A model generated the notes under the pieces. The model had not been told where the DNA came from, did no database searches, and worked only from the letters and a program-made list of their open reading frames with translations. A program made the translations under genes and the position numbers. From NCBI GenBank assembly GCA_963838845.1, contig CAWISR010000002.1, positions 430,663 through 494,662 on the forward strand: DNA of 64,000 bases, read 5' to 3'. The stretch is from an uncultured Acidimicrobiaceae bacterium. Lineage in GTDB: Bacteria; Actinomycetota; Acidimicrobiia; Acidimicrobiales; Bog-793. Shown piece after piece: positions 1,964 to 26,906 of this stretch (position 1 is its first letter; each line of letters begins with the position of its first letter).

Positions 1964-2252
1964 GCGTCGAGGAGACCTGGGTGACCCCGAACGCCGGGAG
2001 AGTGCGTCGCCGTTCGGCACCTTCGAGCTAGTCCGCGAAAATTGGCGCGCATTACGTGACGCTCGTGAACGCGCGTATCGCCGAGTATGCGCTTTCTGAC
2101 GCCGCAGCCTCGGAGCCCGAGAACGATTGATCTGAGTGGATTGGCTGCGGCGCCGATCGAAGCTACGGCGCAGACCCTGCCGACGCAGCCCGTTCAACTG
2201 GAGTCGAGAATTGTGACCTCGGTGTTACCCGCCAGGTAGCACAATTCGAGAT

Positions 2253-2800: not shown

Positions 2801-3123
2801 CGGACGAGTGCCTGCTGAGAACGGTTGAGACCTCGCTCCGTTATTCGCCTGAACCGCCTGCGGGCGCGAGAGTTGACGCCAGTTCCGCGCACAAGCCGAC
2901 GACTTGAGGATGCCGGTCGAGGAACCAGAACAACCTCTTATGCACTGGCAGCTGCGCTACCAACCACCGCCGTTCGTCGCTCCTATCGACGGATCTGGAG
3001 TTCGACTCGCGCCCCATAACGCGCGCCAGGGTTAGGACGTGAAAGCGTCACCAAGCGCCGGTTAGGCGGCCACTGGGGAGTCTCGACCTTCGAGGAACAA
3101 GCTAAGGAGTCTGGCCCTTCTGC

Positions 3124-7526: not shown

Positions 7527-7878
7527 GCGGCGACAATAGGTGTCGCGTCGCGAGTCGCTAAACGAATCTGGTTCGCTCTCGGGGCGAACGCGCGAAATCT
7601 GACCGGCACCCACCGAACCGGTCGATAGATCCGCGAGCGTGACCGATTCACGGAACCGAACGGCCGTCCCATATCACTCAGCGCCACCCGACTCTCGGGG
7701 TAGCTCATAACGCCGGGACGGTGGCGTTACAAGAACTGGAGGTTCAAGGTCACATCGGCGGCGCCTGCCTCTCCGTCGTCTACGTCGACACCGACCACCC
7801 TCTCCGAGACGCCGCGTCGGGGGGTCGGGATCGACCGAGCATCACCATGGAGTGGGTTGCGGGCTGTCGTCTCGGCAG

Positions 7879-10035: not shown

Positions 10036-10061
10036 AACGTGGAGTTGCGACGCGTGGTACC

Positions 10062-10096: not shown

Positions 10097-10539
10097 CATT
10101 GACGACTCCGAGGACGCCGCCGAGGAAACGGAGGCTCTCGAAGGATGCTGATGGCTGTCACGGCTAAGCGTTTCCAGCCGAGCGGCGTCTTGAGCGTGCT
10201 CATCTCAGCACGGGAGTTCCGCGGGACCAAATCGCGATTTGCATGATCGAGTTTTGCCGTCGGTTCGTGCTGACGCGATCCACGAGCTGCCCTTGATGCG
10301 GGGCGGGCGATTAGCAAGCCAGGCATCACTTGTTCCGCTTTGCGCGGCTACCAATGGAGATGATGCGCTCTTCTCGTACAAGCACGGCTCCGTCGGTCCA
10401 ATGACTGAGCGCATCCATATCGGCATCCTGACGTTACGCGAGAGATCCGAGCGAACCTCACAGAAGACCTGTCCTGCCAACTCACGTCAGTGACGCCGAG
10501 AAACGCTGCGGATCAACGTCCGGGCGCGGAACTCCGCGT

Positions 10540-10555
10540 TACTTGAACTGAATTA
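10540..10555 (+). repeat. Putative recombination site, type A
   Basis: TACT-TGAACTGA-ATTA, 37 bp before the 10593 start. Confidence 0.65.
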
Positions 10556-10592
10556 AGCAGTCTGATCGGGACCTGCCGATCGCCCCGAGCTA

Positions 10593-11795
10593 GTGCGAAA
10601 CTTTGTCGTGCGATCGGCGAGACCGCGGCGTCCTTTCTCAGCCGCGCACGGTGGACGCGTCCTTCTCGTATCCGTCGCCTTGCTGGCGGCATGGGGACAA
10701 TCAACAAGCGTGGCGGCAACGAGAAAGCCTTCTTCGGTCACTCGTTCGGACGCGAGGCCGTCTTCGTCGGGCACGCTCGCCTATCTTTCGCCCGTCGATT
10801 CGGAAACGGCGTGGGCCGTCGTCGACAGCGTCGAGGGCGGTGAGCGCGTGCTGCGCACCACGAATGGGGCGGCGAGCTGGAACGACGTCACCCCGCGACA
10901 GCTAAAGGCTCTGGTCACCGGCGCCAACGTGGCAGCCGGTGCCGCGACTCCCCAAGTCCTATTCGTCGGTGCGAAACGGGCGTGGACGTCCGCAGATGGA
11001 TGGCTCGTCGCCACGACTGACGGCGGAAGGATGTGGGCCACCCTCGCCCGGTTGCCCAAAACGTGCGTTCCTCTCCAGTTCGTCGACCCAACACACGGTT
11101 GGTGCGAAGTGACCGGCGCGGCGGCCGGCTCCGAAAGCGTCGTCCTCTACCGGACCAACGACGGGGGCCTGCACTGGCAGCGGGTGAGTGCCACCGAGCC
11201 GAGCTCGTCGACCAAAGGAGCCCTCCCGTTCGGTTGCGAAAAGCCGATCAGTTTCACGAGCGAGACCGTGGGGTGGGCGGGACTCACCTGCTCGGGCTAT
11301 ATCAGCCGCGTGTACGAGACGACCGATGCCGGTGCCTATTGGACAGCTCGCACGATCAGCGGGATTCCGCCGTCAATGGCGGATGCCGAGATCTCAGTCG
11401 TCCCACCGAGGCTCTCCGGCGTCCTCGGCGCCGGCGTCATGTTGGTCAACAACGACGTCATCATGTATCGCAGTGAGAACCGCGGTGTCACTTGGCGGGC
11501 GGTCGCGCCGCCAGGAAAGCTCCAACCCTGGGATGCCGACGTGATCAACCCCCTTCAATGGCGCCTCGCTGATGACCGGCGCATCGAGTCCACCAACACG
11601 GGAGGTCGCACGTGGACGGTCATCAATCCCAACTGGCCTATCCCTCCGGCGGCCAACCCCCACCTAAACCTGCCCACCCTCCAGTTCGTCTCGGGAAGCG
11701 TTGGGTGGGGCACTTACTACATGCCAAACGGTTCGATAGTCCTTCGAACCACCGACGGCGGAGCACGGTGGACGAAGGTTCGATCACCGGCTTGA
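10593..11795 (+). CDS. Secreted BNR/Asp-box repeat beta-propeller (YCF48-like)
   Basis: Signal peptide; repeated TxDGGxxW motifs. Confidence 0.8.
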   Translation: MRNFVVRSARPRRPFSAAHGGRVLLVSVALLAAWGQSTSVAATRKPSSVTRSDARPSSSGTLAYLSPVDSETAWAVVDSVEGGERVLRTTNGAASWNDVTPRQLKALVTGANVAAGAATPQVLFVGAKRAWTSADGWLVATTDGGRMWATLARLPKTCVPLQFVDPTHGWCEVTGAAAGSESVVLYRTNDGGLHWQRVSATEPSSSTKGALPFGCEKPISFTSETVGWAGLTCSGYISRVYETTDAGAYWTARTISGIPPSMADAEISVVPPRLSGVLGAGVMLVNNDVIMYRSENRGVTWRAVAPPGKLQPWDADVINPLQWRLADDRRIESTNTGGRTWTVINPNWPIPPAANPHLNLPTLQFVSGSVGWGTYYMPNGSIVLRTTDGGARWTKVRSPA

Positions 11796-11852
11796 TTTGC
11801 CGCCCCGATCCTCGGATCCAATAGACGACGTTTGCCGGAACCTCAGCACGAT

Positions 11853-11868
11853 TACTTGAACTCAAATA
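11853..11868 (+). repeat. Putative recombination site, type A
   Basis: TACT-TGAACTCA-AATA between two genes. Confidence 0.6.
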
Positions 11869-11946
11869 CTCAGTCGACGCTCGTTCGTTTCGACGCTTCC
11901 CAAGGTGCTTCGTGGATACAGTGCAAGGCATCGCGATGAGCCGCCA

Positions 11947-12447
11947 ATGACCGAGCACGGGAGCGATGTCGACCGGCGCGCGGAGTGGGAGTCCTTGAAG
12001 GCCCGCTACCTCCGACCGCTGGACGCACGACCGGTCTCGTCGGCCCGAGGTCTGCACCACTTCGCCTTGCTCTGCAGCGATGTCGAACGGACCATCATCT
12101 TCTACCAGGAGCTTCTCGAGTTTCCCCTGGTCGAAGTCTTCGAGAACCGGGACTATCGCGGATCCACCCACTTCTTCTTCGATGTGGGACACGGCAACTA
12201 TCTGGCGTACTTCGATTTCCCCGGTCTTGACCTCGGGGACTACCGCGAAGTGCTCGGCGGCCTCCATCACATCGCGATTTCCGTTACTCCCGAGCAATGG
12301 AACCGGCTCGTGGCCAAGCTGGAAGCGGCAGGAATCGAGACCCTCATCGTGGACGGTTCATCGGTCTACTTTCCCGGACCAGATGGCGAACGACTCGAAT
12401 TGCTCTCGTACCCGCTCAACGACATGTACGGGACGATCGTCGGCTGA
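11947..12447 (+). CDS. VOC/glyoxalase family protein
   Basis: GLHHFAL...FYQELL, GLHHIAI, SVYFPGPDGERLEL. Confidence 0.85.
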   Translation: MTEHGSDVDRRAEWESLKARYLRPLDARPVSSARGLHHFALLCSDVERTIIFYQELLEFPLVEVFENRDYRGSTHFFFDVGHGNYLAYFDFPGLDLGDYREVLGGLHHIAISVTPEQWNRLVAKLEAAGIETLIVDGSSVYFPGPDGERLELLSYPLNDMYGTIVG

Positions 12448-12469
12448 GTCACGCGTGACGAGAGCACGA

Positions 12470-12506
12470 CGATGAGAGCTATCAGCACCGTATTTCTGCA
12501 CAATTA
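12470..12506 (+). repeat. Putative recombination site, type B, with conserved flank
   Basis: Core TATT-TCTGCACA-ATTA (12491-12506); 28/35 identity to 24668-24702. Confidence 0.6.
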
Positions 12507-12789
12507 CGCAGCGTCACCTTCGTGAGCGTCCCCGACCGGCATGTCTGAAGGAGCGGGGCCGTGTCAATCCTCGCGACAGGCGGTTCTTCCTGCTCGATGC
12601 TCTGGGACTCGACGACACAACCTGAGTGAAGGCGCGCGCCATCGAGGCGTCGGGGTCAAGGTGGAGCGCCCGTAGCAATGCGAGGACGAACGACCTTGAC
12701 GCCGGCGCCGAGTGGCGCAGGATGTCTCCGGTTGTGGTCGGCGGTCGCTAAGCGCCGTTGGGTTCGCACCAAGTTCTCTCGCGTCAGAG

Positions 12790-12955
12790 ATCGTGAGAGC
12801 GGCAAGCTCGGTTGCCGAGGCATGTCTTCGCTGAGTCGCTCAGCATGGTGTGTTCCGGCCGCGAACGGGCGGGCTCAATCACTTTGCCGGCTGCGCCACT
12901 CCTTTGAGTGGGAGCCCTGCCGATCGTCGAGCTCGCGCCCGTTCGCGTCCGAGCG
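12790..12955 (-). ncRNA. Predicted bridge RNA/seekRNA of IS copy 1 (3' end uncertain, may extend toward 12561)
   Basis: 11-bp closing stem (12861-12871 with 12936-12946) around an internal hairpin flanked by CGAUCGGCA and AAAGUGAU, which match the two target halves; a second hairpin loop carries AGACAUGC, matching the circle junction. Confidence 0.75.
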
Positions 12956-13966
12956 TCACGCCGCCTTGGGGCTCTTGAGACAGCGGATCTCTCCGTCTCT
13001 GAGCCCGTAGTAGACGAGCGTGAGGACCTTGCGGGCGATGGCGACAGTCGCCTTTTTCTTGCCGCGCCGGTCGGCGATCGACTGGAAGGCGGCTTCGAAG
13101 ATGCCGGCGTGGTAGCGGGCGACGGTCTCGACTGCTGCCCAGCGCACGAGGCGCGAGCCTTGTTTCGTGATCTGACCGCGACGGACCTTGGTGTCGGACT
13201 CGCGATGAATCGGCGTGAGCCCCGCCCACGAACAGAGTGCCTCTGGTGAGGGAAAGCGCGAGACGTCGCCGATCTCGGCGACGAAGATCGCCGCCATCAC
13301 TTCGCCGACGCCATAGATCGCCTGCACGGCGTTGTAACCGGGATCGTGGCGCAACAACAAATGCGTCTGGCGGTCGATCTCGAGGATCTCGCGGTTGAAG
13401 AAACAGACGAGGTCGCGCAGCACCTCGATGCGGTGCGAATAGGCGCGAGGGATCTCGAGCGAGTCGAACTGGGCGGCACCGCCGACGCCCCACATGTCGT
13501 TGCGAACGGGCAGCACACCGTTCTTCGCGAGGACGGCGTGTGCCTGAGCCTTCACGCCCGTGCGCATCGACGAGAGCTTGTTGCGGAATCTGACGAGCTC
13601 TCTCAGCTCACGGAGCTCCGGTGGCGCGATCCACGCCTCGGCAAGACGGCCGAGGCGCAACAGGTCGGCGAGGTCGTGCGCGTCGCGCTCGTCGTTCTTC
13701 ACGCGGCGGTGTCCCCAGTCGTTTCCCTTCGGGTTGGCGAGGTGGACGACATAACCGAGACCCTCGAGCAGGTCCGCCGCCCAATACCAGCCGTAGGTGG
13801 CTTCGAGGATCACGTCGCTTCCAGCCGGCGCCGCCAACACCGCGGCGGCGAACTCACCGGGATCGTTGTCGATGCGCACGCTCGAGAGCTGCTCTCCGCC
13901 TGCGTCCATGCGCACGATCACCGAACGGCGGCGGTGCAGGTCGATGCCGACGTACTCTCGTTCCAT
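12956..13966 (-). CDS. IS110 family transposase/recombinase
   Basis: YVGIDLH, VILEAT, KNDERDA (DEDD); C-terminal AEIGDVSRF...GLTPIHRESD...KQG. Confidence 0.96.
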   Translation of the reverse strand: MEREYVGIDLHRRRSVIVRMDAGGEQLSSVRIDNDPGEFAAAVLAAPAGSDVILEATYGWYWAADLLEGLGYVVHLANPKGNDWGHRRVKNDERDAHDLADLLRLGRLAEAWIAPPELRELRELVRFRNKLSSMRTGVKAQAHAVLAKNGVLPVRNDMWGVGGAAQFDSLEIPRAYSHRIEVLRDLVCFFNREILEIDRQTHLLLRHDPGYNAVQAIYGVGEVMAAIFVAEIGDVSRFPSPEALCSWAGLTPIHRESDTKVRRGQITKQGSRLVRWAAVETVARYHAGIFEAAFQSIADRRGKKKATVAIARKVLTLVYYGLRDGEIRCLKSPKAA

Positions 13967-14276
13967 CGGGGCCTCCCTTGTCGTGGGACTGGTGTGAGAA
14001 ACCCCAGTTTCGCCATTGAGACTGGAACTCTCACGGGGAGCGGAGGCCCCGCTCCTTCATCGCATCACTTATGCCACGCACGGGTTAATCGTTGCGGCGG
14101 CGTTATGGGCTACTTACCAGAGTGCAGATCGCCGAATCCGGCGTCGATCGAGGCTCAGATTCGGGTGGGGGGTCGAGGTGCGGGGATCGGCAGTTATGCG
14201 CTACCACCGCTTCGGTTAATCGGCCGTCTCATCTCTCACCCAAGAGGGTGCGGCCTCTGACGAGTCTGACGCCGGG

Positions 14277-14684
14277 TCAGCGTTGGGTTGGTTCTCCAGG
14301 TGCGATGTCGACGAACAGCTCGACTTCGTTTCCGTCGGGATCGTGCATGTGCATTCCTTTGGTGTTGGCGTGGCGCAGCTCGAACAAGATGACGACGCCG
14401 GCGGCTTCGAGCTCGCTTTTGGTGGCGTCGAACTCGTCGAGCGAGTCACCGACTTTGAACGCGACGTGGGCGAGGCCGGCGGTGTTGCGATCGGAAGAGG
14501 GTCCGTTCTTGCCGAGTTCCATGACCGCGAAGTCGTGATGGTGACCGAGGGTGAAGAAGACCATTGGTACCGGGTGGGCCGTGCGGCCGGCAATGGGGAT
14601 CCCCAGTGTCTTGCCGTAGAAGTGTTCGGCGCGTTGCGCATCGCGCACTTTGACAACGACGTGACCGAGTTCCTGAATCCGCAT
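14277..14684 (-). CDS. VOC family protein (catechol dioxygenase-like)
   Basis: LGHVVVKV, HHDFAV, GLAHVAF, DPDGNEVEL. Confidence 0.85.
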   Translation of the reverse strand: MRIQELGHVVVKVRDAQRAEHFYGKTLGIPIAGRTAHPVPMVFFTLGHHHDFAVMELGKNGPSSDRNTAGLAHVAFKVGDSLDEFDATKSELEAAGVVILFELRHANTKGMHMHDPDGNEVELFVDIAPGEPTQR

Positions 14685-14893
14685 CACGGCCTCACGGGCT
14701 GTCGGCCGAGCTTGGCGAGGAGTCGATCGGTGGGCGGCGCGCTCGAGTCGATGGGGACCTCGGCGCCGAACGCTCCGTGGGCGCGATAGAGGTCGAGGGA
14801 GATTGGACGGTAGAAGTTGTCGAGCATCGCTGCCACGGCCGGATCGATCGTCGCATCGGCTCCGAGCGCGGTGGCGACGTCCCATGTGTGCAC
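14684..14893 (-). pseudogene. C-terminal fragment of a TIGR03086/MDMPI-like metal-binding protein
   Basis: VHTWDVATALG...FGAEV...APPTDRLLAKLGR with the N-terminal part missing. Confidence 0.65.
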
Positions 14894-14898
14894 GACGG

Positions 14899-15336
14899 CT
14901 AGGCGGGCGTGAGGCCGTGGCGGCGCATCACTTCGAGCAGCGCGGCAACGTCGGGCGGGCCGTAGGGGGTGGCGGTCAGGACGTCGCGGATCTCGGTGAA
15001 GTACTCGGGCCCGAAGACGCCCGGAGTGGCCACCGAAAGAAACTTGGCGTCGACCGTTCCGGTGTTGACGAACTGGTGGACTTGGCCTCGTCGGATGCAG
15101 ACCGCGTCGCCGGGGCCGATCTCGCGCGAGTGGTCGTCAATGGTGAAGGTGAGGACGCCTTCGAGTCCATAGACGGTCTCGTCGAACGCGTCATGGCTGT
15201 GGGGCGGGGGAACCTGGGCTCCGCCTCGGACTGCGCATTCGAAGACGGTCGCGGCTCCGTCGGAATCCTGCGCCTCGACGAGGAATCGGACGTCGATCCC
15301 GCCGAGGGTGATGGTGGTGTTGGACGTGGTCTGCAT
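14899..15336 (-). CDS. Cupin domain protein
   Basis: PPPHSH...DETVYGLEG...PGDAVCIRRGQVHQF. Confidence 0.88.
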   Translation of the reverse strand: MQTTSNTTITLGGIDVRFLVEAQDSDGAATVFECAVRGGAQVPPPHSHDAFDETVYGLEGVLTFTIDDHSREIGPGDAVCIRRGQVHQFVNTGTVDAKFLSVATPGVFGPEYFTEIRDVLTATPYGPPDVAALLEVMRRHGLTPA

Positions 15337-15407
15337 GGTGCTCTCCCTGGTCGGTTGTTTAGCCTAGATGGAGATTCTGCGCAGATGTATCCTCTAATGT
15401 CAAGGCC

Positions 15408-16058
15408 ATGGCCCTGGCAAAACGCCCATACGACGCCCGCCGCCGCCGCGAGCGCGCGACCGAGGAACGCTCCGAGACCCGCCGCCGCGTCGTCAACGCC
15501 GCCCGCGAACTGTTTCTCGAGCGCGGCTACGTCGCCACGACGATGGCTGACATCGCCCGCGAAGCGGGCGTCGCGCTGCAATCGGTCTACACGGCCGGGC
15601 AAAGCAAAGCCGATCTGCTCCACCTAGTCACCGACCTCGCGGTCGCGGGCGACAGCCAAGAGGTCATGCTCGTCGACCGGCCCGTATACGCCACCGTCGC
15701 CGCCGAACCCGACCCGGCACGACAGATCGAGATGTTCGCCGGCTTGATCGCAACAACCATGGAACGTCTCGCACCCGTCTGGATCACCTACCGCGAGGCC
15801 GCCGCCGTCGACCCGAAGGCCGCCGCCAATCTCGTGGCGGCCCACCGTCGACGCCACGAAACCTTCCGAACCCTGATCCGCATGGTTCCCGAACAACACC
15901 TACGCAACGATCACGACCGCAGCGCCGACACGGCGTGGGCAGTCGGCAGCATCGACGTCTTCCTGCTTCTCCGCACGGTCCTCGAATGGGACCCGGCCCA
16001 ATACGCCGAATGGCTACGCGACACACTGATTGATCAGCTCGTCGCGCCGCTGCGCTGA
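15408..16058 (+). CDS. TetR/AcrR family regulator
   Basis: AARELFLERGYVATTMADIAREAGVALQSVY; divergent from the cupin gene. Confidence 0.9.
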   Translation: MALAKRPYDARRRRERATEERSETRRRVVNAARELFLERGYVATTMADIAREAGVALQSVYTAGQSKADLLHLVTDLAVAGDSQEVMLVDRPVYATVAAEPDPARQIEMFAGLIATTMERLAPVWITYREAAAVDPKAAANLVAAHRRRHETFRTLIRMVPEQHLRNDHDRSADTAWAVGSIDVFLLLRTVLEWDPAQYAEWLRDTLIDQLVAPLR

Positions 16059-16207
16059 CCGCGACCGGGACTGTCCGATCTGATCGGAACTGCGAGGCGC
16101 GTCCCATAATGCGCGCTGGCATCCGGCTCCGAGCGCGCCCACAAACGCCGGATTGGTGACGGCGCTACGACGGTTCACTGATTCAAACCGCTGCTCGGGG
16201 ATTGTCG

Positions 16208-16231
16208 CGTTTAATTGAACTGGATTAAACG
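16208..16231 (+). repeat. Putative recombination site, type A
   Basis: CGTTTAAT-TGAACTGG-ATTAAACG, perfect 8-bp arms. Confidence 0.75.
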
Positions 16232-16290
16232 GTTTGATCGAGGCGTGCGTCGATCAGTTACTGTTCCGCCACACCGAGCTCGAATCGACG

Positions 16291-16812
16291 CTACAAGGCC
16301 TTGCACGTCCAACTGCCGGAGATCTTGACCGTCTGCCCGGCGACATCGCGCATCGACGCGCTGATGGAATCGGTCTTGGCCGCGATCGTGACGGTGCCAG
16401 TCGTCGCGGTGAAGTCCCACTTCGCGCTCGTCTTGCCCAGCGGTTCCGGATCAAAGACGACATGTGGTTGCTTGATGGGGCTCCCCGTGATCTTGAATGT
16501 GCCCCTGTTGTTCTCGATCACATCGAGATTCCAGTAAGTGACGTTCTTCGTGAAACCCGAGATCGGCCCGACAAGGTCGCTGACACTCGTCGAGCCGCCG
16601 ATATCGACGCATCCCGCTGTAACGGAGTGACCGAAGTGAAGGGTGCCGTGCCCGGCTCCTGAGATCGTGAAGGTATTGACCGGTGAGCCTTTGGCCGGGG
16701 TCTTCGACGCGGCTGCCGTGCCAACTGCGAGGTACCCGGTCACTGACACGCACAGTGCAGCCGCGGCAATCCGTCCGGTCATCTGCGCCCGCTTGTTCGT
16801 CCGCGTCGTCAT
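16291..16812 (-). CDS. Secreted hypothetical protein
   Basis: Signal peptide-like N-terminus; beta-rich mature region. Confidence 0.6.
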   Translation of the reverse strand: MTTRTNKRAQMTGRIAAAALCVSVTGYLAVGTAAASKTPAKGSPVNTFTISGAGHGTLHFGHSVTAGCVDIGGSTSVSDLVGPISGFTKNVTYWNLDVIENNRGTFKITGSPIKQPHVVFDPEPLGKTSAKWDFTATTGTVTIAAKTDSISASMRDVAGQTVKISGSWTCKAL

Positions 16813-16914
16813 TTCGCACTCCCGGTTCGTCTTCGGGAGTAAGCGGGTCGGCCGAGCGCCCGCGCGACAGCTTCGAGTGCCGCCCATGGAAAGAAACTAC
16901 CAATCGCCGAAGGT

Positions 16915-17112
16915 GAGTGGGTTGGGCCACGACCCATCACCCCGGATGGGCTACCCGTAATCGGAGCAACGCGTTTGTCAAACGTCTTTGTCGCTGGAGG
17001 ACATGGAATGTGGGGCATGACTCTTGGACCGGCGTCGGGGAAGCTTCTGGCGCAACAGATTGCAACAGGTAGCCGGTCACAAGCACTGTTGCCGTTCGAT
17101 CCGTTGCGATGA
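16915..17112 (+). pseudogene. C-terminal fragment of an FAD-dependent D-amino acid dehydrogenase/oxidase
   Basis: Manual translation EWVGPRPITPDGLPVIGATRLSNVFVAGGHGMWGMTLGPASGKLLAQQIATG...PFDPLR*; N-terminus absent. Confidence 0.8.
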
Positions 17113-17185
17113 GTTGGCGCTTGCCTACTTCCGAGTCTTGCCGCAGAAGGAGCACTGCGCGTTCGGGTCGCCAAGGATCACGGCC

Positions 17186-17232
17186 GTTAATCCTTGCCGC
17201 TTTCGACGGTCGGGCGAAATTGAACACGAGTA
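17186..17232 (+). repeat. Accessory motif plus degenerate type A site
   Basis: GTTAATCCTTGCCGCTTTCGAC (20/22 to 23540-23561), then AAAT-TGAACACG-AGTA. Confidence 0.6.
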
Positions 17233-17369
17233 CTCAGTGAGACGGAGCACCTGCTGCGCACTGTTATCGGGGTTCGGCCAACCTCTAGCATGCGAGCAAT
17301 GAAATCACTCGCGCCAGACAACTTCCTTCTCCTCAACTGCGTGTGGTGAGCAGTCGTTAGTCCAGCAAG

Positions 17370-18749
17370 ATGAGGAAGTTCCTCCTTTGCGCGGGTCTAG
17401 GAATGGTTGGTTACGTCGCGGTTTTCGCGCTCTGCGGTCCGGCTGGCGGAGCCGTCCACCATCGAATAGTGCGTAGGCCCGATTTGGCGTGGTTCCGAGC
17501 AGGCCAGTCGTCAGTTCCCGCCTCGGGCGGGACGGTGGTTCTCACGGCGCGAGTCCTTCGGGCGGTTTCGTGTGAATTCGGAGGAGGAGAAGCCAAGCCG
17601 CTTTACGAACACTGTTCCGGGGGCGTGGCGCGAGTCGACGAGACGTTCCCCGCGAACTCAAGCGCGTCGGCTCAGCCCTGGCGATTTTGGGTGCGCGCAC
17701 GAGGGCGCTTCGGTTCGGTCGTGAAGTATCTGTCGCTCAACCAGCTAGGCAATGAGATCGTACTGACAGCATCTCTGAACTCGGACACGACGTTTCTGTC
17801 GTACACGGGCGGATCGTTCACCCTCTCGTACTCCTCGACAGACGCGTCGAATTGTTCGCTGTCCTCCTCACCTACTTTCTGGTCCGGCGTGAACCCGGCC
17901 ACGGTCAATTGCACAGGGACGTATTCGGCACCCCAGTCGAGCAACGCGTCAACTTCGACGCGGAGCTGGGCCTTCACGTTCACCGCCACCAACGCGAATG
18001 GTCTGTCAGCAAGCTCGTCCGTGACGATCACACAGGCTGGAGCTCCATACGTCACGGATCCGAACTGGTCGGGTTACGTGACGAACGAGGGAGCGATCGT
18101 CACTGAAGCAGACGGAACGTGGACTGTCCCGGCACTTAATTGCCCCGATACGCCAAACGCCGGTGCTTCCCAATGGGTTGGGACCGGCGCTGGTGGTGGC
18201 GCTGCAAGCGGCCTTCTCTTGCAGACCGGCGTCGTCAGCGAGTGCGTGAGCGGGAGCCAGGAGAACTACGGATGGTGGGAGCTGTACCCGACCTCAGGTA
18301 CAGGTGCAACGGAGTTCTCGTCGTTCACGGTCTCGACCGGAGATCAGATGACCGCGTACGTGTACCAAATCGAATCGAACTGCACGACGTACTGCGGTCA
18401 ATGGGAAACGGTTCTTGAGGACCTCACTACCGGCATCGAAGGGGTGATGGTGACCGAAGAGGGCTACGGCGTGACCTCGATCGGATCGAACTCATTCACT
18501 CAGCAAGGATCGACGGTGGGCCTCTCGTACTCTGGCGGCACCACGGCAGAGTGGATTGTCGAGGACTACGGGAGCCCGATGGTTCCCTTCGCGAACTACG
18601 GAACGGTGACGTTCTCGAACTTGCACTCCGACTTAAATACCCCAACTCTCGCCGGAGACGCCTGGGCAATCGAACAGAACGGAGTAGTTCTGTCGACGCC
18701 ATTCGCTCCTGAAGGCGACGGCTTCAGCGTTAGCTATACGGGCCCGTAG
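17370..18749 (+). CDS. Secreted G1-family glutamic peptidase (eqolisin) with N-terminal beta domains
   Basis: NWSGY, WTVP, QWVG, LLQTGV, WWELYP, TAEWIVE, YGTVTF. Confidence 0.85.
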   Translation: MRKFLLCAGLGMVGYVAVFALCGPAGGAVHHRIVRRPDLAWFRAGQSSVPASGGTVVLTARVLRAVSCEFGGGEAKPLYEHCSGGVARVDETFPANSSASAQPWRFWVRARGRFGSVVKYLSLNQLGNEIVLTASLNSDTTFLSYTGGSFTLSYSSTDASNCSLSSSPTFWSGVNPATVNCTGTYSAPQSSNASTSTRSWAFTFTATNANGLSASSSVTITQAGAPYVTDPNWSGYVTNEGAIVTEADGTWTVPALNCPDTPNAGASQWVGTGAGGGAASGLLLQTGVVSECVSGSQENYGWWELYPTSGTGATEFSSFTVSTGDQMTAYVYQIESNCTTYCGQWETVLEDLTTGIEGVMVTEEGYGVTSIGSNSFTQQGSTVGLSYSGGTTAEWIVEDYGSPMVPFANYGTVTFSNLHSDLNTPTLAGDAWAIEQNGVVLSTPFAPEGDGFSVSYTGP

Positions 18750-18791
18750 CGAACGCGCTGAACTTCTGAAGCGCATGAAGCGCCGTCAGAG

Positions 18792-18817
18792 CGCCGTAAT
18801 AGAACTGGATTACTGCG
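18792..18817 (+). repeat. Putative recombination site, type A
   Basis: CGCCGTAAT-AGAACTGG-ATTACTGCG. Confidence 0.75.
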
Positions 18818-18877
18818 ATGTCCGCCTGGGGACCTTCGACCCTGTCCCGACTCGGGTGAGGCGCCCACCATTGCCAG

Positions 18878-19486
18878 ATGGTCACGGGGGACCGTGGGGA
18901 TAAGCCGCGCGGAGAGCGCATCTTTATCCAGGACTTCGTCGACCTAGCACGCCCATTCGAACAGGTTCAGGAACGATTTCTTGGAGACGGCAGCTGGCTC
19001 ACGCCGCTCGCGAGCGCAGCCGAAGAAGATGGCGAGTCTCTTCGTATGCGGATCTCTCTTCGCATGCGGATTGGACCGACGTGGGCAGGTGGTCGGGTGA
19101 CCCGCCCGGTGAGAGTGGTCCTTCGACCAGCTTGGGACCGTGGCGACGCGCTCATCGTTCCACTCGCTTGGGAGGTCATCGGTCTTCATTCGATGATCCC
19201 GTCGCTCGAGGGCGACGTGGAGGTTGCCCCTCTTGGTCCGGATCACTGCCGGATCACCCTTTCGGCCTCGTACGTGCCACCGTTCGGCGAACTCGGGGTT
19301 CGTCTCGACCACGCCCTCATGCGTCATGTCGCCGCCTCGACCGTGCGCTCCTTCGTTGCCCGCGTGGCTGCGAGCATTCAAGATCAGGAGGGAGGGTCTT
19401 ACGCTGACATCGAGCCAGCCATTAAGCGGGTCGAGAAGCCCGAGAACTGGACACTCGACGAGTCCGAATATGGAGGCGAGGGTTAG
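18878..19486 (+). CDS. Hypothetical protein (possible SRPBCC-like fold)
   Basis: PSLEGDVEV...ITLSASYVPPFGELG...VRSFV pattern. Confidence 0.65.
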   Translation: MVTGDRGDKPRGERIFIQDFVDLARPFEQVQERFLGDGSWLTPLASAAEEDGESLRMRISLRMRIGPTWAGGRVTRPVRVVLRPAWDRGDALIVPLAWEVIGLHSMIPSLEGDVEVAPLGPDHCRITLSASYVPPFGELGVRLDHALMRHVAASTVRSFVARVAASIQDQEGGSYADIEPAIKRVEKPENWTLDESEYGGEG

Positions 19487-19502
19487 TAATAGAACTCGAT
19501 TA
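19487..19502 (+). repeat. Putative recombination site, type A
   Basis: TAAT-AGAACTCG-ATTA starting at the base after the TAG stop; core identical to 25929-25944. Confidence 0.75.
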
Positions 19503-20326
19503 AGACGCGCACGATTACTGCATCAGGCTGTCCAATCGTTTGTGCGACGTCGGGATTGTCGACGTTTTAAGGGAGATGGCGTAAGTGGCGCCCCATCGGG
19601 ATTCACGCGTAGCGACGCGTCTTGATACGACCCGGGCTGTTGCGCCACACCTTTGGCATCCTGCCACCACCCACTTGGATTTTGAGGTAGCTCTCGAGTG
19701 GGACGAAGTCGCTCGAGCAAGCTTTTCAGGTCACGCGTGGTACTCAACGAGCTTCTCCGAGTTTCCATCGAGCGGTTCGGCGTCGATAAGCGCTGACCGA
19801 TGTCGATCACAAGAATCCACGACATAAACGTTGCGACCAACATGGAGTGTGCCACGCCATGTGGCGCTCTCGCTGCACTGCCCTCGCGCATGCTCAGTTT
19901 TGACGACGCGTTGGCAACTTCGTCTCAACCGCGCAACGTTCACTTCGAGTACGACGGGGTGAGACGCACCCTCCCCGCGTCCAATCCCCGCGCCGCAATC
20001 TGGCGGGGGTCGTTCGAAATGAGAATCTCCCAGCACAGTTTACACAGCCACCATTTCGACAAGCTGGCGGCTTCGAATGACGAACCCAGGTCGGAGGTCT
20101 CCTGACATCTGGAGCATTGACGAGTTGTGAGGTGATCGAGAGTCGGAGTGCCAGTGGCTTGCGCGCCCGCGACCTCCTCAGAACGAGTCGCTGGGCACAT
20201 CGAAACCGCCGATCTTGCCGTCGAAAGCGGCGACGCTGAAGTTCGAGGTGGACTCGATACGCATCGTACAGCCGTTCGGTAGGTAGCCGAACATCCGTTC
20301 CGGGAGAAAGTTAAGCGACACGCGTG

Positions 20327-20342
20327 TTACTTCTCACTATTA
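20327..20342 (+). repeat. Putative recombination site, type B-like
   Basis: TTAC-TTCTCACT-ATTA, 5 bp before the conserved IS target motif. Confidence 0.5.
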
Positions 20343-20611
20343 AGCGTGCGTCCCCGACCGGCATGTCTGAAGGAGCGGGGCCGTGTCAATCCTCGCGACA
20401 GGCGGTTCTTCCTGCTCGATGCTCTGGGACTCGACGACACAACCTGAGTGAAGGCGCGCGCCATCGAGGCGTCGGGGTCAAGGTGGAGCGCCCGTAGCAA
20501 TGCGAGGACGAACGACCTTGACGCCGGCGCTGAGTGGCGCAGGATGTCTCCGGTTGTGGTCGGCGGTCGCTAAGCGCCGTTGGGTTCGCACCAAGTTCTC
20601 TCGCGTCAGAG

Positions 20612-20777
20612 ATCGTGAGAGCGGCAAGCTCGGTTGCCGAGGCATGTCTTCGCTGAGTCGCTCAGCATGGTGTGTTCCGGCCGCGAACGGGCGGGCTCAA
20701 TCACTTTGCCGGCTGCGCCACTCCTTTGAGTGGGAGCCCTGCCGATCGTCGAGCTCGCGCCCGTTCGCGTCCGAGCG
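20612..20777 (-). ncRNA. Predicted bridge RNA/seekRNA of IS copy 2
   Basis: Same sequence as 12790-12955. Confidence 0.75.
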
Positions 20778-21788
20778 TCACGCCGCCTTGGGGCTCTTGA
20801 GACAGCGGATCTCTCCGTCTCTGAGCCCGTAGTAGACGAGCGTGAGGACCTTGCGGGCGATGGCGACAGTCGCCTTTTTCTTGCCGCGCCGGTCGGCGAT
20901 CGACTGGAAGGCGGCTTCGAAGATGCCGGCGTGGTAGCGGGCGACGGTCTCGACTGCTGCCCAGCGCACGAGGCGCGAGCCTTGTTTCGTGATCTGACCG
21001 CGACGGACCTTGGTGTCGGACTCGCGATGAATCGGCGTGAGCCCCGCCCACGAACAGAGTGCCTCTGGTGAGGGAAAGCGCGAGACGTCGCCGATCTCGG
21101 CGACGAAGATCGCCGCCATCACTTCGCCGACGCCATAGATCGCCTGCACGGCGTTGTAACCGGGATCGTGGCGCAACAACAAATGCGTCTGGCGGTCGAT
21201 CTCGAGGATCTCGCGGTTGAAGAAACAGACGAGGTCGCGCAGCACCTCGATGCGGTGCGAATAGGCGCGAGGGATCTCGAGCGAGTCGAACTGGGCGGCA
21301 CCGCCGACGCCCCACATGTCGTTGCGAACGGGCAGCACACCGTTCTTCGCGAGGACGGCGTGTGCCTGAGCCTTCACGCCCGTGCGCATCGACGAGAGCT
21401 TGTTGCGGAATCTGACGAGCTCTCTCAGCTCACGGAGCTCCGGTGGCGCGATCCACGCCTCGGCAAGACGGCCGAGGCGCAACAGGTCGGCGAGGTCGTG
21501 CGCGTCGCGCTCGTCGTTCTTCACGCGGCGGTGTCCCCAGTCGTTTCCCTTCGGGTTGGCGAGGTGGACGACATAACCGAGACCCTCGAGCAGGTCCGCC
21601 GCCCAATACCAGCCGTAGGTGGCTTCGAGGATCACGTCGCTTCCAGCCGGCGCCGCCAACACCGCGGCGGCGAACTCACCGGGATCGTTGTCGATGCGCA
21701 CGCTCGAGAGCTGCTCTCCGCCTGCGTCCATGCGCACGATCACCGAACGGCGGCGGTGCAGGTCGATGCCGACGTACTCTCGTTCCAT
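20778..21788 (-). CDS. IS110 family transposase/recombinase
   Basis: Protein identical to 12956..13966. Confidence 0.96.
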   Translation of the reverse strand: MEREYVGIDLHRRRSVIVRMDAGGEQLSSVRIDNDPGEFAAAVLAAPAGSDVILEATYGWYWAADLLEGLGYVVHLANPKGNDWGHRRVKNDERDAHDLADLLRLGRLAEAWIAPPELRELRELVRFRNKLSSMRTGVKAQAHAVLAKNGVLPVRNDMWGVGGAAQFDSLEIPRAYSHRIEVLRDLVCFFNREILEIDRQTHLLLRHDPGYNAVQAIYGVGEVMAAIFVAEIGDVSRFPSPEALCSWAGLTPIHRESDTKVRRGQITKQGSRLVRWAAVETVARYHAGIFEAAFQSIADRRGKKKATVAIARKVLTLVYYGLRDGEIRCLKSPKAA

Positions 21789-22086
21789 CGGGGCCTCCCT
21801 TGTCGTGGGACTGGTGTGAGAAACCCCAGTTTCGCCATTGAGACTGGAACTCTCACGGGGAGCGGAGGCCCCGCTCCTTCATCGCATCACTTTTGTGACA
21901 TTCGGGAAATCGCGTAAGAGGCTGTGATCCGTCGGCCCAAAGCTAAGTTGAGTCGTGGGTTTACGAAACACCACATCGCCCGGACAGAATTAAATTGCGT
22001 AACCAGCCCAACGTGGGGTCCGTCGGCGGGTTAAGTAGCCCATTCGAACTCTCTTCGACAGAGTCAGTAGTCGTAGGCTGCCTCGT

Positions 22087-22614
22087 GTGATTGTTCCCGA
22101 CACGAAGGACTGGACATGGGTCCTCGAGCGAGCCTGTCCGGAGTGTGGCTTTGACGCAAGCAAATGCGAAGCTGAAGATGTCGCTGGTCTAATTCGAGAC
22201 GACGCGCAGGTATGGGAACGATTTCGGCGCAATGGCACCATTCGAGCTGGTCGTCCCAACGAGTCAACGTGGTCGACTCTCGAGTACACATGTCACGTGC
22301 GCGACGTCTATCGGATTTACAGAACACGGATCCAACGCATGCTGACCGAAGACGACCCTCTGTTTGAGAATTGGGACCAGGACGCCGCCGCAATGGTTCA
22401 TTCCTACGAGCAACAAGCTCCCGAGGTGGTCGCTGCTGAGCTCGCCTTTGCTGCCGAGTCGTTGGCGTCAACGCTCGACGGAGTGTCAGGTTCGTCCTGG
22501 CTTCGAGCTGGCCGTCGAAGTGACGGGGCGTCCTTCAGCGTTGGCACCATCGCCCGTTACATGATCCACGATCCCATCCATCACGCCTGGGATGTGCAGA
22601 AGCAGCACTCTTAG
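22087..22614 (+). CDS. DinB family protein
   Basis: DTKDWTWVLERACPECG, WSTLEYTCHVRD, HDPIHHAWD. Confidence 0.85.
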   Translation: MIVPDTKDWTWVLERACPECGFDASKCEAEDVAGLIRDDAQVWERFRRNGTIRAGRPNESTWSTLEYTCHVRDVYRIYRTRIQRMLTEDDPLFENWDQDAAAMVHSYEQQAPEVVAAELAFAAESLASTLDGVSGSSWLRAGRRSDGASFSVGTIARYMIHDPIHHAWDVQKQHS

Positions 22615-22684
22615 CATCTAGGACCCCTGATTATCGAAAGTACGGGGTCAGTGACGGTTGGGAACAGCGCTGATGGACGCGCCG

Positions 22685-22700
22685 CAATAGAACCCGATTA
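22685..22700 (+). repeat. Putative recombination site, type A
   Basis: CAAT-AGAACCCG-ATTA. Confidence 0.65.
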
Positions 22701-22806
22701 TGAGCGCCGAGCGGAAAGGGTGGAGCCCCATCTCGATTCGTCCCTGAGCAGCGACGCCTGACTTTCACTACCGTTCGGTCTGACCCATCTAGCGCCGGAG
22801 GCAGCC

Positions 22807-23103
22807 ATGCGGTTCCTTCAGTTCATTGAGTTCAAGACCGACGACATCGACGCATTCTCGGCTGAGGTCGACCAGTGGATAGCGGAGTCCAAGGATTGGC
22901 GAACGGCTTCGCGGTCCACTTTGTGCGCAGATCGTGACAACCCCGGTCATTACGTCAGCATCGTGGAATTCCCCTCCTACGAGGAAGCCATGGCCAACTC
23001 GAACGACCCCCGGACGGCCGAGTTCGCGGCGCGTTTGGAGAAAATCACATCCGGGGATCCGAAGTTCCGCAACCCCGACGTGCTCCGGGTTGAGGAGATG
23101 TAA
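22807..23103 (+). CDS. Small dimeric alpha/beta-barrel-like protein
   Basis: GGAGG RBS; DRDNPGHYVSIVEFPSYEEAMANS. Confidence 0.75.
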   Translation: MRFLQFIEFKTDDIDAFSAEVDQWIAESKDWRTASRSTLCADRDNPGHYVSIVEFPSYEEAMANSNDPRTAEFAARLEKITSGDPKFRNPDVLRVEEM

Positions 23104-23105
23104 GT

Positions 23106-23185
23106 CTCGGTGTAATTCCCCGATTAATGCGAAGCGCCGAAAGCCGCGTTTACTAAAGCGCGTATATCTGCACTATTACGCCGAG
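23106..23185. repeat. Composite element: shortened type A site, accessory motif and type B site
   Basis: TAAT-TCCCCG-ATTA (23113-23126) and TATA-TCTGCACT-ATTA (23163-23178); outer arms CTCGGTGTAAT/ATTACGCCGAG are near-complementary. Confidence 0.6.
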
Positions 23186-23563
23186 TCCTGAGGTAGTATC
23201 CGACGACGAGGTTGCACCGAGCGGAGCGAGCGGAGCCGCAAGCAACTGCTCGGTTCGCTCCCGAATCTGCTTGAGCGCGCATATATAACGAGAAACCAAT
23301 TTCCGGCTTGCTGCTATTCCGAGGGCCCGCTCTTTCGTCAGTTTTTGAGCGCCAGTACGTTCGGGCGCGTCCGAAGTCTTTAGTTCCTCCCAGATGACGT
23401 CGACGCAGAGATCCACGCAGTCGCCGCAAATCTGGACACCTCGTGCGGCGATCGTCTGTTTGACCTGCTCTTGCGACCGGCCACACCAGCTGCACTTCCC
23501 ATCGGCGCTTCCCGTTGGAACGGAGTCGTCGGCCACGGCGTTAATCCTCGCGGCTTTCGACAA
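23153..23563 (-). CDS. ClpX C4-type zinc-finger domain protein (boundaries uncertain)
   Basis: [30 protein letters not shown]; no AAA+ domain. Confidence 0.65.
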
Positions 23564-23607
23564 GCCGGGCGCAATTGTTCAGTATTAAGCGAGATCCCCG
23601 ACGAGCA
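23540..23607 (+). repeat. Accessory motif, core site and unoccupied IS-target-like motif
   Basis: GTTAATCCTCGCGGCTTTCGAC, then CAAT-TGTTCAGT-ATTA (23572-23587), then AGCGAGATCCCCGACGAGCA. Confidence 0.6.
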
Positions 23608-23690
23608 CTGCCGCCGATATGTCCGCTCGCAGGTGGCGTAGTCCCTAACTTCTCAGGTCACGCGAGGTACTCATAACGTAGTATTCGTCG

Positions 23691-24638
23691 TTGAATTCTG
23701 TCGTCTTCGTGACCAATCGGGCGACAACGCGACGATTGGACCTCCTCGAAATGCGGTGCGAGACCGTTGCCACATCCCATGGTCTGAGGCCCGTCTTCTT
23801 CGAGCGTGTCTCCGACGCGAGCGTCTCGATAGAAAGGGAAGCTGCGCTCGAAGAGTGCGTTGCTGAGAATGAAGCCGAACTCGTCGTTGCCGTCGGTGGC
23901 GACGGCACTGTCCACGTCTGTGTGCAGGCAATCCACGAAAGCGGTGCTGCTCTCGCCATCGTGCCGAGGGGAGCCGCCAACCTGATCGCCCACTCCTTGG
24001 ACCTGCCTTTCGGGATAGACGATGCCCTAGCGGTCGGTTTTGGCAATCATGAGCGCAGGGTCGACGTGGCGGTGGTGAATGGTCGGATCTCGCTTGCGAT
24101 GGCAGGCATGGGATCGGACGCGGCGGTCATCCAAGCCACACCGGCGCTCTTCAAACGGCACCTTGGTTGGATTGGTTATGCCATCGGCGGGCTCTCCCAG
24201 CTGCATGCTGCGCCACACCACTTCGAGATCCGCCTCGACGATGGAGAGCCGATGTACAGGACGGCACATTCTGTTGTCGTCGGCAACGTCGGGATCTTGC
24301 CGGGAGGATTCGAGCTACTTCCCGGAGCACAGCTCGACGACGGGCTCCTCGACGTGGGGGTGCTCGCCGTCGACGGTCTGTGGGGCTGGACGCGGCTTGC
24401 TGGTCGCCTGCTCGAAGAGCGCGCTTACTCCGAGGCTGGCAATACGAGGCTGTATGCGAGCGATGAATATCCCTTTGGCGAGGATGGCGTCGAGCATTAC
24501 CAGGCCCGTCACGTGGAAGTCAGGGCGGAGACCGAACTCTGCTGCGAGGTGGACGGCGAAGTCATTGGCATGAGCCGTTCATTGAACATCGACGTGCGCG
24601 AACAAGCGCTCAGGGTGCGAGCCCCTGTCGCGCCCTGA
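23691..24638 (+). CDS. Diacylglycerol/lipid kinase family protein
   Basis: VAVGGDGT, IVPRGAANL, DDGLLDV, EVDGE. Confidence 0.88.
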   Translation: MNSVVFVTNRATTRRLDLLEMRCETVATSHGLRPVFFERVSDASVSIEREAALEECVAENEAELVVAVGGDGTVHVCVQAIHESGAALAIVPRGAANLIAHSLDLPFGIDDALAVGFGNHERRVDVAVVNGRISLAMAGMGSDAAVIQATPALFKRHLGWIGYAIGGLSQLHAAPHHFEIRLDDGEPMYRTAHSVVVGNVGILPGGFELLPGAQLDDGLLDVGVLAVDGLWGWTRLAGRLLEERAYSEAGNTRLYASDEYPFGEDGVEHYQARHVEVRAETELCCEVDGEVIGMSRSLNIDVREQALRVRAPVAP

Positions 24639-24667
24639 ATTGCCAACGCCGTCATTCAAAGAGAGCG

Positions 24668-24704
24668 CGATGAGTGTTGTCAGCACCGAATATCCGCACG
24701 ATGC
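24668..24704 (+). repeat. Degenerate type B site with conserved flank
   Basis: 28/35 identity to 12470-12504. Confidence 0.55.
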
Positions 24705-24819
24705 AAGGCGACGGAAATAGCCACGGCACTGGCCGGGCGCTCTCGCGGCGAGTTCGATCTGGCGGTACGACGATCTGTTCGAGGGTTCCCGACGGACACG
24801 TCGGGATAGCGTTGTCACG

Positions 24820-25272
24820 GTGCGGGGTCTCGTAATCGCTGTGGTGGCAGCGATCTCTGGGATTGCCCTCGGAGTGGGGATCGCGGGAGCGGTCGCCGCC
24901 AACGCATCCTCGCCCGTGCTTGGATCCAAAGCGTTCGCGGGTCCGAGCGGCGTCGGCTGGGGAACGTACAGACCGCGCGAGATCTTCAACGGCGGCGACC
25001 CAAGCGGATTGGTGAAGGCGATTACCTGGAGGCATTGGGGGAAAACGGAGGCTTATGGCAACGGGAAGACCTACATCTTCAAACCGACGGGTGGCTATTA
25101 CCCCGGCCTTGTGAATATCGAGCTGCGCGCTTCCGATCTGGGGCACTGCACAACCGGTGGCCCGCTCGCATACGAACATCTGGACGCCCGCGTACCGGCG
25201 AAGCCTGGAGGAAGGCTCGGGCCGTGGTTCGCCTGGAGCGACGCAAAGACGCTCTGCCATTTCGGGTTCTGA
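24820..25272 (+). CDS. Secreted hypothetical protein
   Basis: Signal peptide; GWGTYRPREIFNGGDPSG. Confidence 0.7.
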   Translation: MRGLVIAVVAAISGIALGVGIAGAVAANASSPVLGSKAFAGPSGVGWGTYRPREIFNGGDPSGLVKAITWRHWGKTEAYGNGKTYIFKPTGGYYPGLVNIELRASDLGHCTTGGPLAYEHLDARVPAKPGGRLGPWFAWSDAKTLCHFGF

Positions 25273-25345
25273 AGCTCATTCACCGTATCTGTGGCGCGCT
25301 GTCGAGGAGTGAGGGCTAGAAGTTCCCGGGCCAATCATTCTTTGA

Positions 25346-25816
25346 CTAGGAGTTTCTAGGCCGACAAGTGCCGGGCGCCCAGTTCCAGACTGCGAGGACC
25401 GGAGCGGGCAGACGGACCGGGCATTTCGTCCCGGCGATCCCAGTCAGACCGACGTCATCTGCTCTCCAAGGCTTCCCGGCTCTGCGGTTGAAGAGAAGGT
25501 AGCTGCCGTCATCTTGGACCGAGATCTGAGCCCGAAGCGACTTGCTGCTCGGAACGAGCGCCGCGCCCGCCCAGTACGTAGTGGTTGCGGGGTCGTAGGC
25601 GTAGTACGTCTCATCGGCCACGAGTCCCTTGAAGGCCGACGCCGGAAGCCCGTCGAGGGCCGCCCCGGCTTTCAACAGCTCGGCGCGGACCGTGCTTGTG
25701 ACCGAAAGATCCTTGACTTCTTGCGGGGAGGAAGACGATGAAGTCCGGCCCGCGGTCGCACTTCCGCACGCTGCCAACGTCGCTGCCAGAACAGCGAGAA
25801 CAACGAAACGCCTCAC
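25346..25816 (-). CDS. Lipoprotein
   Basis: Lipobox LAAC after a hydrophobic stretch. Confidence 0.75.
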   Translation of the reverse strand: MRRFVVLAVLAATLAACGSATAGRTSSSSSPQEVKDLSVTSTVRAELLKAGAALDGLPASAFKGLVADETYYAYDPATTTYWAGAALVPSSKSLRAQISVQDDGSYLLFNRRAGKPWRADDVGLTGIAGTKCPVRLPAPVLAVWNWAPGTCRPRNS

Positions 25817-25922
25817 TCGAGACCTCCAATTCTAAGCGATTCTGCGTTAGCGACGTAACTCAATGCAACGACTCGGTCATCTGGCCGCGCTAAGTGTCCG
25901 TCAACGCGCAATCGTCAGACTT

Positions 25923-25950
25923 CGCGTTTAATAGAACTCGATTAAACGCG
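25923..25950 (+). repeat. Putative recombination site, type A (best copy)
   Basis: CGCGTTTAAT-AGAACTCG-ATTAAACGCG: perfect 10-bp arms and asymmetric 8-bp spacer. Confidence 0.8.
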
Positions 25951-25971
25951 CACGCTTCTGCCCGTATTTCG

Positions 25972-26694: not shown

Positions 26695-26906
26695 CGTCTT
26701 TGTACGCGCCACCCCCAAAGTCGGGGGTGGCGCGTTCTCTGTCAGTGACCCCAAACATTCACGCGGAGGCTGGCTTCGAAGTGCCCCCAACCGCCGGCTC
26801 TGCGCACGTCGCCAGCCAGTTGCGCCCTACGGCATCAGCTTTACAGCGGTCTAACGACCGTCCAGCTTGCTCTGACTGTCGACCAGAAGGTGCCAATTCG
26901 CGGTGA

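Follow-up and report, generated by a model that had tools for sequence, protein, structure and literature searches.

Insertion sequences (IS) of the IS1111 type are known for a long non-coding region after the transposase gene and for ends that follow a 7/3-base-pair (bp) rule (PMC11187229), and bridge RNAs or seekRNAs have been described for ISEc11, ISKpn4 and ISPa11 (PMC11187229, PMC11208160). A handshake guide pattern is described for IS621 (PMC11208158). A different type of site hunter, represented by ISAjo2 and IS1202, gathers at pdif sites; ISAjo2-type elements have DDE enzymes and insert 5 bp outside pdif (PMC10132070). Here we describe an IS1111-type element in a 64,000-nucleotide stretch of an uncultured Acidimicrobiaceae genome (assembly GCA_963838845.1, contig CAWISR010000002.1, positions 430,663 to 494,662; "the window" hereafter). 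The reading that we favour, at a probability of roughly 70%, is that the IS sits in the CGGCAC centre of a three-arm repeat, that its insertion there is likely guided by a bridge RNA, and that the repeat is likely a module junction separate from the cassettes bounded by TAAT-N8-ATTA cores in the same region. The source genome (G000, 89% complete) was compared with the relatives G001-G004; L plus a number denotes a homologue or relative locus.

The IS is 1,526 bp long and present in five copies in G000, two of which lie in the window and differ by one base across the aligned stretch. The components of the first copy, and the extent of the second, are as follows.

12542..14067, minus strand: IS1111-type element copy 1, 1,526 bp, delimited by genome comparison and the 7/3-bp end rule
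20364..21889, minus strand: IS1111-type element copy 2, delimited by genome comparison and the end rule
12956..13966, minus strand: IS110-family transposase, 336 amino acids (aa), with PF01548 and PF02371 and with NF033542 above cut-off
12546..12560, plus strand: subterminal inverted repeat, right end of copy 1, from sequence
14045..14059, minus strand: subterminal inverted repeat, left end of copy 1, from sequence

The transposase combines the DEDD and Transposase_20 domains that characterise IS1111, the 15-bp subterminal inverted repeats leave extensions of 7 bp on the left and 3 bp on the right (a boundary that agrees with the empty sites), and the long non-coding region downstream of the gene holds target-matching guides. 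The element was typed as IS1111 because of its subterminal repeats, the long non-coding region downstream of the gene and the 7/3-bp ends, and every testable feature assigns it to this family. It is like ISEc11, ISKpn4 and ISPa11 in its DEDD transposase, subterminal repeats, 7/3-bp ends and structured region after the gene with target and donor guides; unlike them, it targets the centre of a three-arm repeat in Acidimicrobiia, with sister clades that split two centre types between them. Unlike ISAjo2, it is predicted to be RNA-guided and inserts inside a spacer.

Bounded by the end rule, the true empty sites of the two window copies have 19 bp in common. A first-pass annotation of this DNA had proposed 22 bp, three of which belong to the IS, and had regarded the shared bases as extending beyond the reach of the guides; no longer guide is needed, the extra bases being the outer arm of the site. 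It was right to place the shared left flank GCGTCCCCGACCG outside the IS, because the other three G000 copies differ there. The 12542/14067 type of boundary is also the only one that explains why the two element ends carry different dinucleotides in a sister IS clade. An unoccupied site with the predicted junction was found at L058 in G002, after a perfect TAAT-N8-ATTA core, and one module is occupied by the IS in G003 and empty in G000, with an identical junction. No contig bypassing the IS was found among four sequencing runs from one study. The homologue survey comprised 79 IS loci, with ends parsed in 62 and unparsable in 17.

The target of the IS is the 6-bp centre of a dispersed repeat of ~64 bp, present in ~67 copies in G000. 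In this repeat the centre is flanked by an 11-bp outer arm and, in inverted orientation, an 11-bp inner arm; the third arm follows 33-37 bp further inward, and all three arms fit one consensus. Two centre types were distinguished: s1, with CGGCAC (16 of 17 strong s1 sites), and s2, with CCGGCG (24 of 29 strong s2 sites). Sites were searched with iterated two-block matrices seeded on the empty sites, which took the place of an nhmmer model built from three seeds that did not expand. At the threshold of at least 18 bits, there were 21 s1 and 46 s2 matches in G000 and none of either type in the reversed genome, counts that are circular for G000 because the site models were trained on it. The two s1 sites interrupted by the IS in the window are divided as follows.

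12526..12541, plus strand: s1 site 1, first part (outer arm 12526-12536 and first five centre bases); the IS is inserted after 12541
14068..14113, plus strand: s1 site 1, rest (last centre base, inner arm 14069-14079, third arm 14103-14113)
20348..20363, plus strand: s1 site 2, first part (outer arm and first five centre bases)
21890..21901, plus strand: s1 site 2, rest (last centre base and inner arm; third arm not detected)

Copies of s1 and s2 cluster in islands, several of them adjoining transfer RNA (tRNA) genes, and their orientations are mixed. The genes among them include glyoxalases, SnoaL-like proteins, regulators and methyltransferases. Neither this repeat family nor the TAAT-N8-ATTA family was found described in the literature searched, from which subscription papers, supplements and ISfinder lay out of reach. 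A strict s2 pattern matched G000 only among 401 genomes of the class, one other family member being sampled and the pattern being too strict to show absence. Two observations were made next to these sites and to the IS itself. An IS1111 relative that is 58% identical and has another target lies ~800 bp from an s1-like site (G000 C3:13905-15076), and a 17-bp tandem duplication (G000 C2:428450-428482) directly adjoins IS copy 4.

The means of target choice was sought in the non-coding region of the IS, which folds with a z-score of -4.0 into two looped stems and was predicted to encode a bridge RNA with the following parts.

12790..12950, minus strand: predicted bridge RNA (fold z -4.0; covariation across homologues)
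12918-12926, minus strand: predicted left target guide, by sequence match
12878-12885, minus strand: predicted right target guide and handshake, by sequence match
about 12845-12853, minus strand: predicted left donor guide, weak (6/9 bases)
12819-12826, minus strand: predicted right donor guide and handshake, by sequence match

Stem 1 carries CGAUCGGCA, which equals the left target with one wobble, and also AAAG-UG-AU, whose predicted partners are the right target, the target core and two donor bases that arrive after exchange. Reciprocally, GACA-UG-CC in stem 2 pairs with the donor and the post-exchange target. This arrangement corresponds to the IS621 handshake (PMC11208158). The target spelled by the predicted guides is CGAYCGG-CA-CTT. 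In a test set of 14 elements (13 parsed homologue rows with the same IS end, and G000), guide and target matched at 44 of 70 variable positions versus 31.0 after shuffling (P = 0.00035), a permutation value that overstates the association because kin share guides and targets. The predicted bridge RNA is thus a likely means by which the IS would be guided to the repeat centre by base pairing: the IS would circularise and then insert through pairing of this RNA with the target. An Rfam scan of the window returned tRNA-Cys as its sole match.

The 13-mer defined by the guides occurs 12 times in the IS-free genome; eight occurrences are inside the repeat family, four outside it, and two are beside a core. 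The IS occupies five of the 12 (4/8 inside the family and 1/4 outside), and since it holds 13-mers of both kinds, base pairing alone suffices to explain its sites. Repeat features outside the guide footprint accompany 10 of the 12 closest IS sites (6/7 when those of G000 are set aside); of the 48 sites as a whole, 24 have them, the background being 5%.

The first-pass annotation had assigned the target to the TAAT-N8-ATTA cores, of which ~54 strong examples were found in G000 in roughly eight clusters, including window 10006-29532, C1:21117-25382, C2:11398-19482, C3:550648-555181 and C3:1546613-1549617. Several cassettes recur core-to-core in relatives. The cores and the cassette closest to the IS in the window are listed here.

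12491..12506, no strand: TAAT-N8-ATTA core with one mismatch, where homology with G002 and G003 breaks
20327..20342, no strand: degenerate TAAT-N8-ATTA core, 5 bp before s1 site 2, from sequence
11853..12506, plus strand: glyoxalase cassette, core-to-core, with the same ends in G002 and G003 (L278, L288)
23572..23610, plus strand: core followed by a decayed s1-like outer arm, unoccupied, scoring below background thresholds

The annotation's distances, 19 bp from the core at 12491-12506 and 5 bp from that ending at 20342, were accurate, and so was its view that the IS targets a conserved motif belonging to a module system. What did not hold was the attribution of that motif to the cores: a core stands beside only five of the 48 distinct junctions of the IS lineage, all five among the 12 closest copies, and beside none of the other 36. 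We therefore regard it as highly improbable that the IS parasitises a cassette system whose sites include the target motif, even though the proximity to five of the 12 closest IS copies and to five of 20 s1 sites exceeds chance (0.24-0.28%) and an unoccupied core-plus-target junction exists at L058. Cores adjoin 1/43 s2 sites, as compared with the 5/20 s1 sites (chance 0.24%), and a target-family site lies no more than 80 bp away from only five of the 54 strong cores. The spacing between core and target varies from 16 to 45 bp, and, as given above, the guide-defined 13-mer falls mostly within the repeat family. The exact type-A core is found only in this genus (5/5 genomes, versus 0/87 other genomes of the family), and the IS lineage and its target also occur in other genera. 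The annotation's own test, whether other copies of the IS lie away from cores, gave a mixed answer: among the five genomic copies, two have a core with at most one mismatch, one has a core with two mismatches, and two have none. The strings that it quoted after 23572 and at 20338 are present, and the site at 23572, which it took for a related unoccupied motif, has a low target-family score. TCCCCGA, put forward as a core-linked motif, was counted three times within 45 bp of the 54 strong cores versus 1.5 expected, no enrichment over chance; its occurrence near 16212 belongs to a conserved flank ~60 bp from an s2 centre, and that at 10061 is one arm of a hairpin. The cores are a cassette system separate from s1/s2, with a local enrichment that is strong but secondary. 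Cores would have come to stand beside some s1 sites because the two systems accumulate in shared islands and because short linkers running from core to s1 were copied.

Comparison with relatives points to a function of the s1/s2 repeat as a junction. Further sites of the window are listed here.

16099..16162, minus strand: s2 site, centre 16146-16151, opposite s1 site 1, with glyoxalase, cupin and TetR genes between the two
26745..26808, minus strand: s2 site, centre 26792-26797, matrix match
3009..3072, minus strand: s2 site, centre ending at 3061, matrix match
7664..7727, minus strand: s2 site, centre ending at 7716, matrix match
1990..2022, no strand: back-to-back junction (s2 centre 1992-1997, 17-bp linker, s1 centre 2015-2020)

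Outer and inner flanks reassort at the repeat centre between genomes; for example, the outer flank of the s2 site at 16099..16162 is common to G003 as far as the centre. When 20 array regions of three relatives were compared with G000, 39 of 155 alignment ends were at most 25 bp from a site, whether s1/s2 or core, with a chance rate of about 1.6% per genome. A 2,283-bp module that is 98.8% identical between G003 and G000 ends within 6 bp of one s1 and one s2 centre. Junctions of the back-to-back type (s2-linker-s1) were found repeatedly in two genera; their 15-bp linkers are identical and their inner flanks unlike. This pattern exceeds the control in genera g1 and g18 and is near control level elsewhere. 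The earlier suggestion that the repeats are a functional family was right, in that both repeat families behave as junctions at which homology between relatives breaks. The s1/s2 repeat is likely the site-specific recombination junction of a gene-module system, in which a homomeric tyrosine recombinase would bind the arms and recombine like centre with like centre.

Transposon ends or protein-binding repeats could give a similar picture if their flanks were swapped by the parasites, through IS-IS recombination followed by excision. Such recombination would also exchange flanks at the insertion point, and an intact owner enzyme was not found in G000. We nevertheless think this quite unlikely: within the genus, swaps occur at s2 too, the s2-type IS being one not found in G000; the back-to-back linkers are conserved with differing inner flanks; inspection showed no target duplications around site pairs; and loci of a serine recombinase and of IS1595 are without sites.

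The module-junction reading can be compared with two described systems. Like the IS1111-attC group (ISKpn4; PMC11187229), the window IS is an IS1111 element homing to gene-array recombination junctions. Unlike attC, s1/s2 do not form a long hairpin when folded as single strands (mean z -0.5 to -0.9 for either strand) and lack fixed AAC/GTT boxes (AAC in 6/17 s1 and 8/29 s2; GTT in 13/17 s1 and 13/29 s2). Unlike integrons, the recombinases scanned score far below the TIGR02249 cut-off, and the sites are mixed in orientation and do not form same-strand arrays. The 11-6-11 layout with inverted sites around cargo, which marks dif modules, is present in s1/s2. As in the dif modules of Acinetobacter (PMC13141974), the order is arm, 6-bp spacer, arm, inverted sites surround cargo, parasites gather, and segments with either arm type inside occur. 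Modules would move singly or paired, as dif modules do. Unlike dif modules, the core arms of s1/s2 share one consensus and match the host dif arms at 3.3-4.9 of 11 positions, and s1/s2 have a third arm, two fixed spacer classes and a chromosomal island setting. In integron attI and the Tn4430 IRS, one recombinase is served by inverted core arms plus a direct-repeat accessory arm. This combination is shared by s1/s2, with a single site there and dozens bounding cargo here. In function, s1/s2 are dif-module-like, yet they match neither attC nor host dif.

The best candidate for the recombinase acting on s1/s2 is probably a 303-aa XerC-like protein with intact catalytic motifs, on the evidence of its gene's position between s2 and s1 in relatives. 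A site was found within 170 bp in seven of 10 close loci, versus none of 12 distant homologues within 200 bp. The offsets are -48 and -49 for s2 (two genera) and +38, +70 and +70 for s1. No relative of this protein was found in the viral contigs searched. This separate integrase is one reason for which we find it unlikely that s1/s2 are divergent dif-like sites recombined by host XerC and XerD, with the IS as a pdif-type site hunter. The likely chromosomal dif (G000 C2:1030148-1030175, near the GC-skew maximum) does share the 11-6-11 layout, and its centre CGGACA resembles CGGCAC; the third arm matches one dif arm at ~6 of 11 positions (best 9), XerC- and XerD-like genes are intact in G000, and segments with the inner or the outer arm type parallel the C and D modules (PMC13141974). 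Set against this, the average match of the outer and inner arms to those of dif is only 3.3-4.9 positions of 11, and the two look like each other instead of like a pair of distinct arms.

Three other owners of s1/s2 were considered and rejected. A large serine recombinase ends at an s1 site in G000, and none of its 11 homologue loci outside G000 carry sites. Were the sites the ends of IS1595, they would be expected at its transposase loci; none was seen at seven such loci in one count or at six in another. IS1595-family ends have a CGGnnTT motif. The two-recombinase element described below is itself inserted within s1 centres, and no copy of it was found in G000. A large serine recombinase and a replication-initiator-like gene were seen near tRNA-Leu (G000 C2:631150-633804), and several s2 sites are preceded by repeats that resemble tRNA ends.

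Three kinds of mobile element use the s1 and s2 centres: the IS lineage, its sister clade and an element with two tyrosine recombinases. Among the 62 parsed loci, IS homologues of at least 72% identity use [CA]GG-CA-C. The sister clade forms one branch with support 100/100 (tree of 60 rows); read on the opposite strand, the s2 centre is its target, and its guides match. Its target core is CG, while its own element end keeps CA. An arm beyond the footprint was seen at 10 of 21 sister-clade sites (background 1%). The s2-type IS was not found in G000. The two-tyrosine-recombinase element recurs near IS sites in homologue loci and is represented by four copies of ~2.57 kilobases, at least 99.7% identical. 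Five of seven close copies have CGGCAC and the s1 inner flank at the right junction, and variants at s2 were recognised by inspection at L168 and L237. Its C-terminal cysteine motif may resemble that of TnpB. In having two adjacent tyrosine recombinase genes and identical copies at several places it resembles Tn554-related actinobacterial elements (PMC3414803), a likeness drawn from their description. It differs from them in that the two proteins, at about 350 and 430 aa, are not of abnormal length, a third gene was not identified, and CGGCAC is repeated at both ends. Both IS clades were seen inside one back-to-back junction at L171, and IS copies were seen inside junctions of the two-recombinase element among the pile-up loci L157, L168 and L227.

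Taken together, these elements suggest a wider picture that we hold tentatively, at somewhat under even odds. Soil Acidimicrobiia would have a gene-module system with two incompatible double-stranded site classes and one XerC-like recombinase, which would amount to a device for cassette exchange made by nature; in one genus it would be interleaved with a second, unrelated kind of cassette that has an 8-bp spacer. The system would be old enough to have acquired specialised parasites, namely two sister RNA-guided IS clades and variants of the two-recombinase transposon, each on one class.

Besides the inflated permutation value and the circular site counts, a number of points weigh against the favoured reading of the IS, its guide and the repeat. 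The whole case is built by computation on DNA sequence, and thresholds were set after inspection of the data. With regard to guidance, the left donor guide matches 6/9 bases only, and in the close copy L004 guide and target disagree at two positions. With regard to the target, IS copy 4 (C2:428483), alone among the G000 copies, lacks repeat features around its site, as does L148, and half of the 48 IS junctions score negative for such features, though 17 are without inner flank. There are two s2 sites for every s1 site, s2 sites are often arranged as direct repeats, and therefore strict s1-s2 pairing fails for some arrays; the 2,283-bp module is the sole one shown with both ends at centres. 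The G000 copy of the XerC-like gene is truncated, with no complete copy found in this 89% complete genome. One of the loci behind its link to the sites is in G000 itself, the site models lose sensitivity in distant genera, and the gene could belong to the cargo instead of being the owner.

Since the homing of IS1111 elements to recombination sites is already known from attC, the IS alone is of modest novelty, and its value is as a pointer to the junction family. That family is widespread and marks the borders of mobile genes for stress and metabolism in a soil lineage that is abundant and mostly uncultured, and the analysis names a testable recombinase. The two IS clades would show how, in nature, a bridge RNA has been retargeted from one site class to another, down to an altered target core. 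Should s1 and s2 prove incompatible with each other, they would offer a ready orthogonal site pair for exchanging cassettes in bacteria of high GC content. The method generalises, as IS110-family guides can be read as probes for unrecognised recombination sites.

Several minor observations concern the TAAT-N8-ATTA cassettes and their surroundings. Tandem cores with a 14-bp period and shared arms occur at G000 C1:22354-22397, C2:15312-15341 and C2:946397-946426 and are possibly scars of empty cassettes. An IS1595-family transposase (G000 C3:270618-271079) begins right after a perfect TAAT core. Two C-terminal stumps of a tyrosine recombinase are present in the window (33040-33196 and 34290-34604), with full-length homologues in G001 and G004 that have no cores close to them. 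As an owner of the cores, the broken recombinase at 34290-34604 found no support, since the five homologue loci examined (seven returned) had no model-scored core and one loose match; a Cre-like protein at C2:3253 found none either, with no match in five genomes. A perfect hairpin with 12-bp arms (window 10061-10097) stands upstream of a cyclase-TPR gene. Finally, a phage-type integrase overlapping tRNA-Cys (window 44859-46204) probably marks the end of the array-bearing island.

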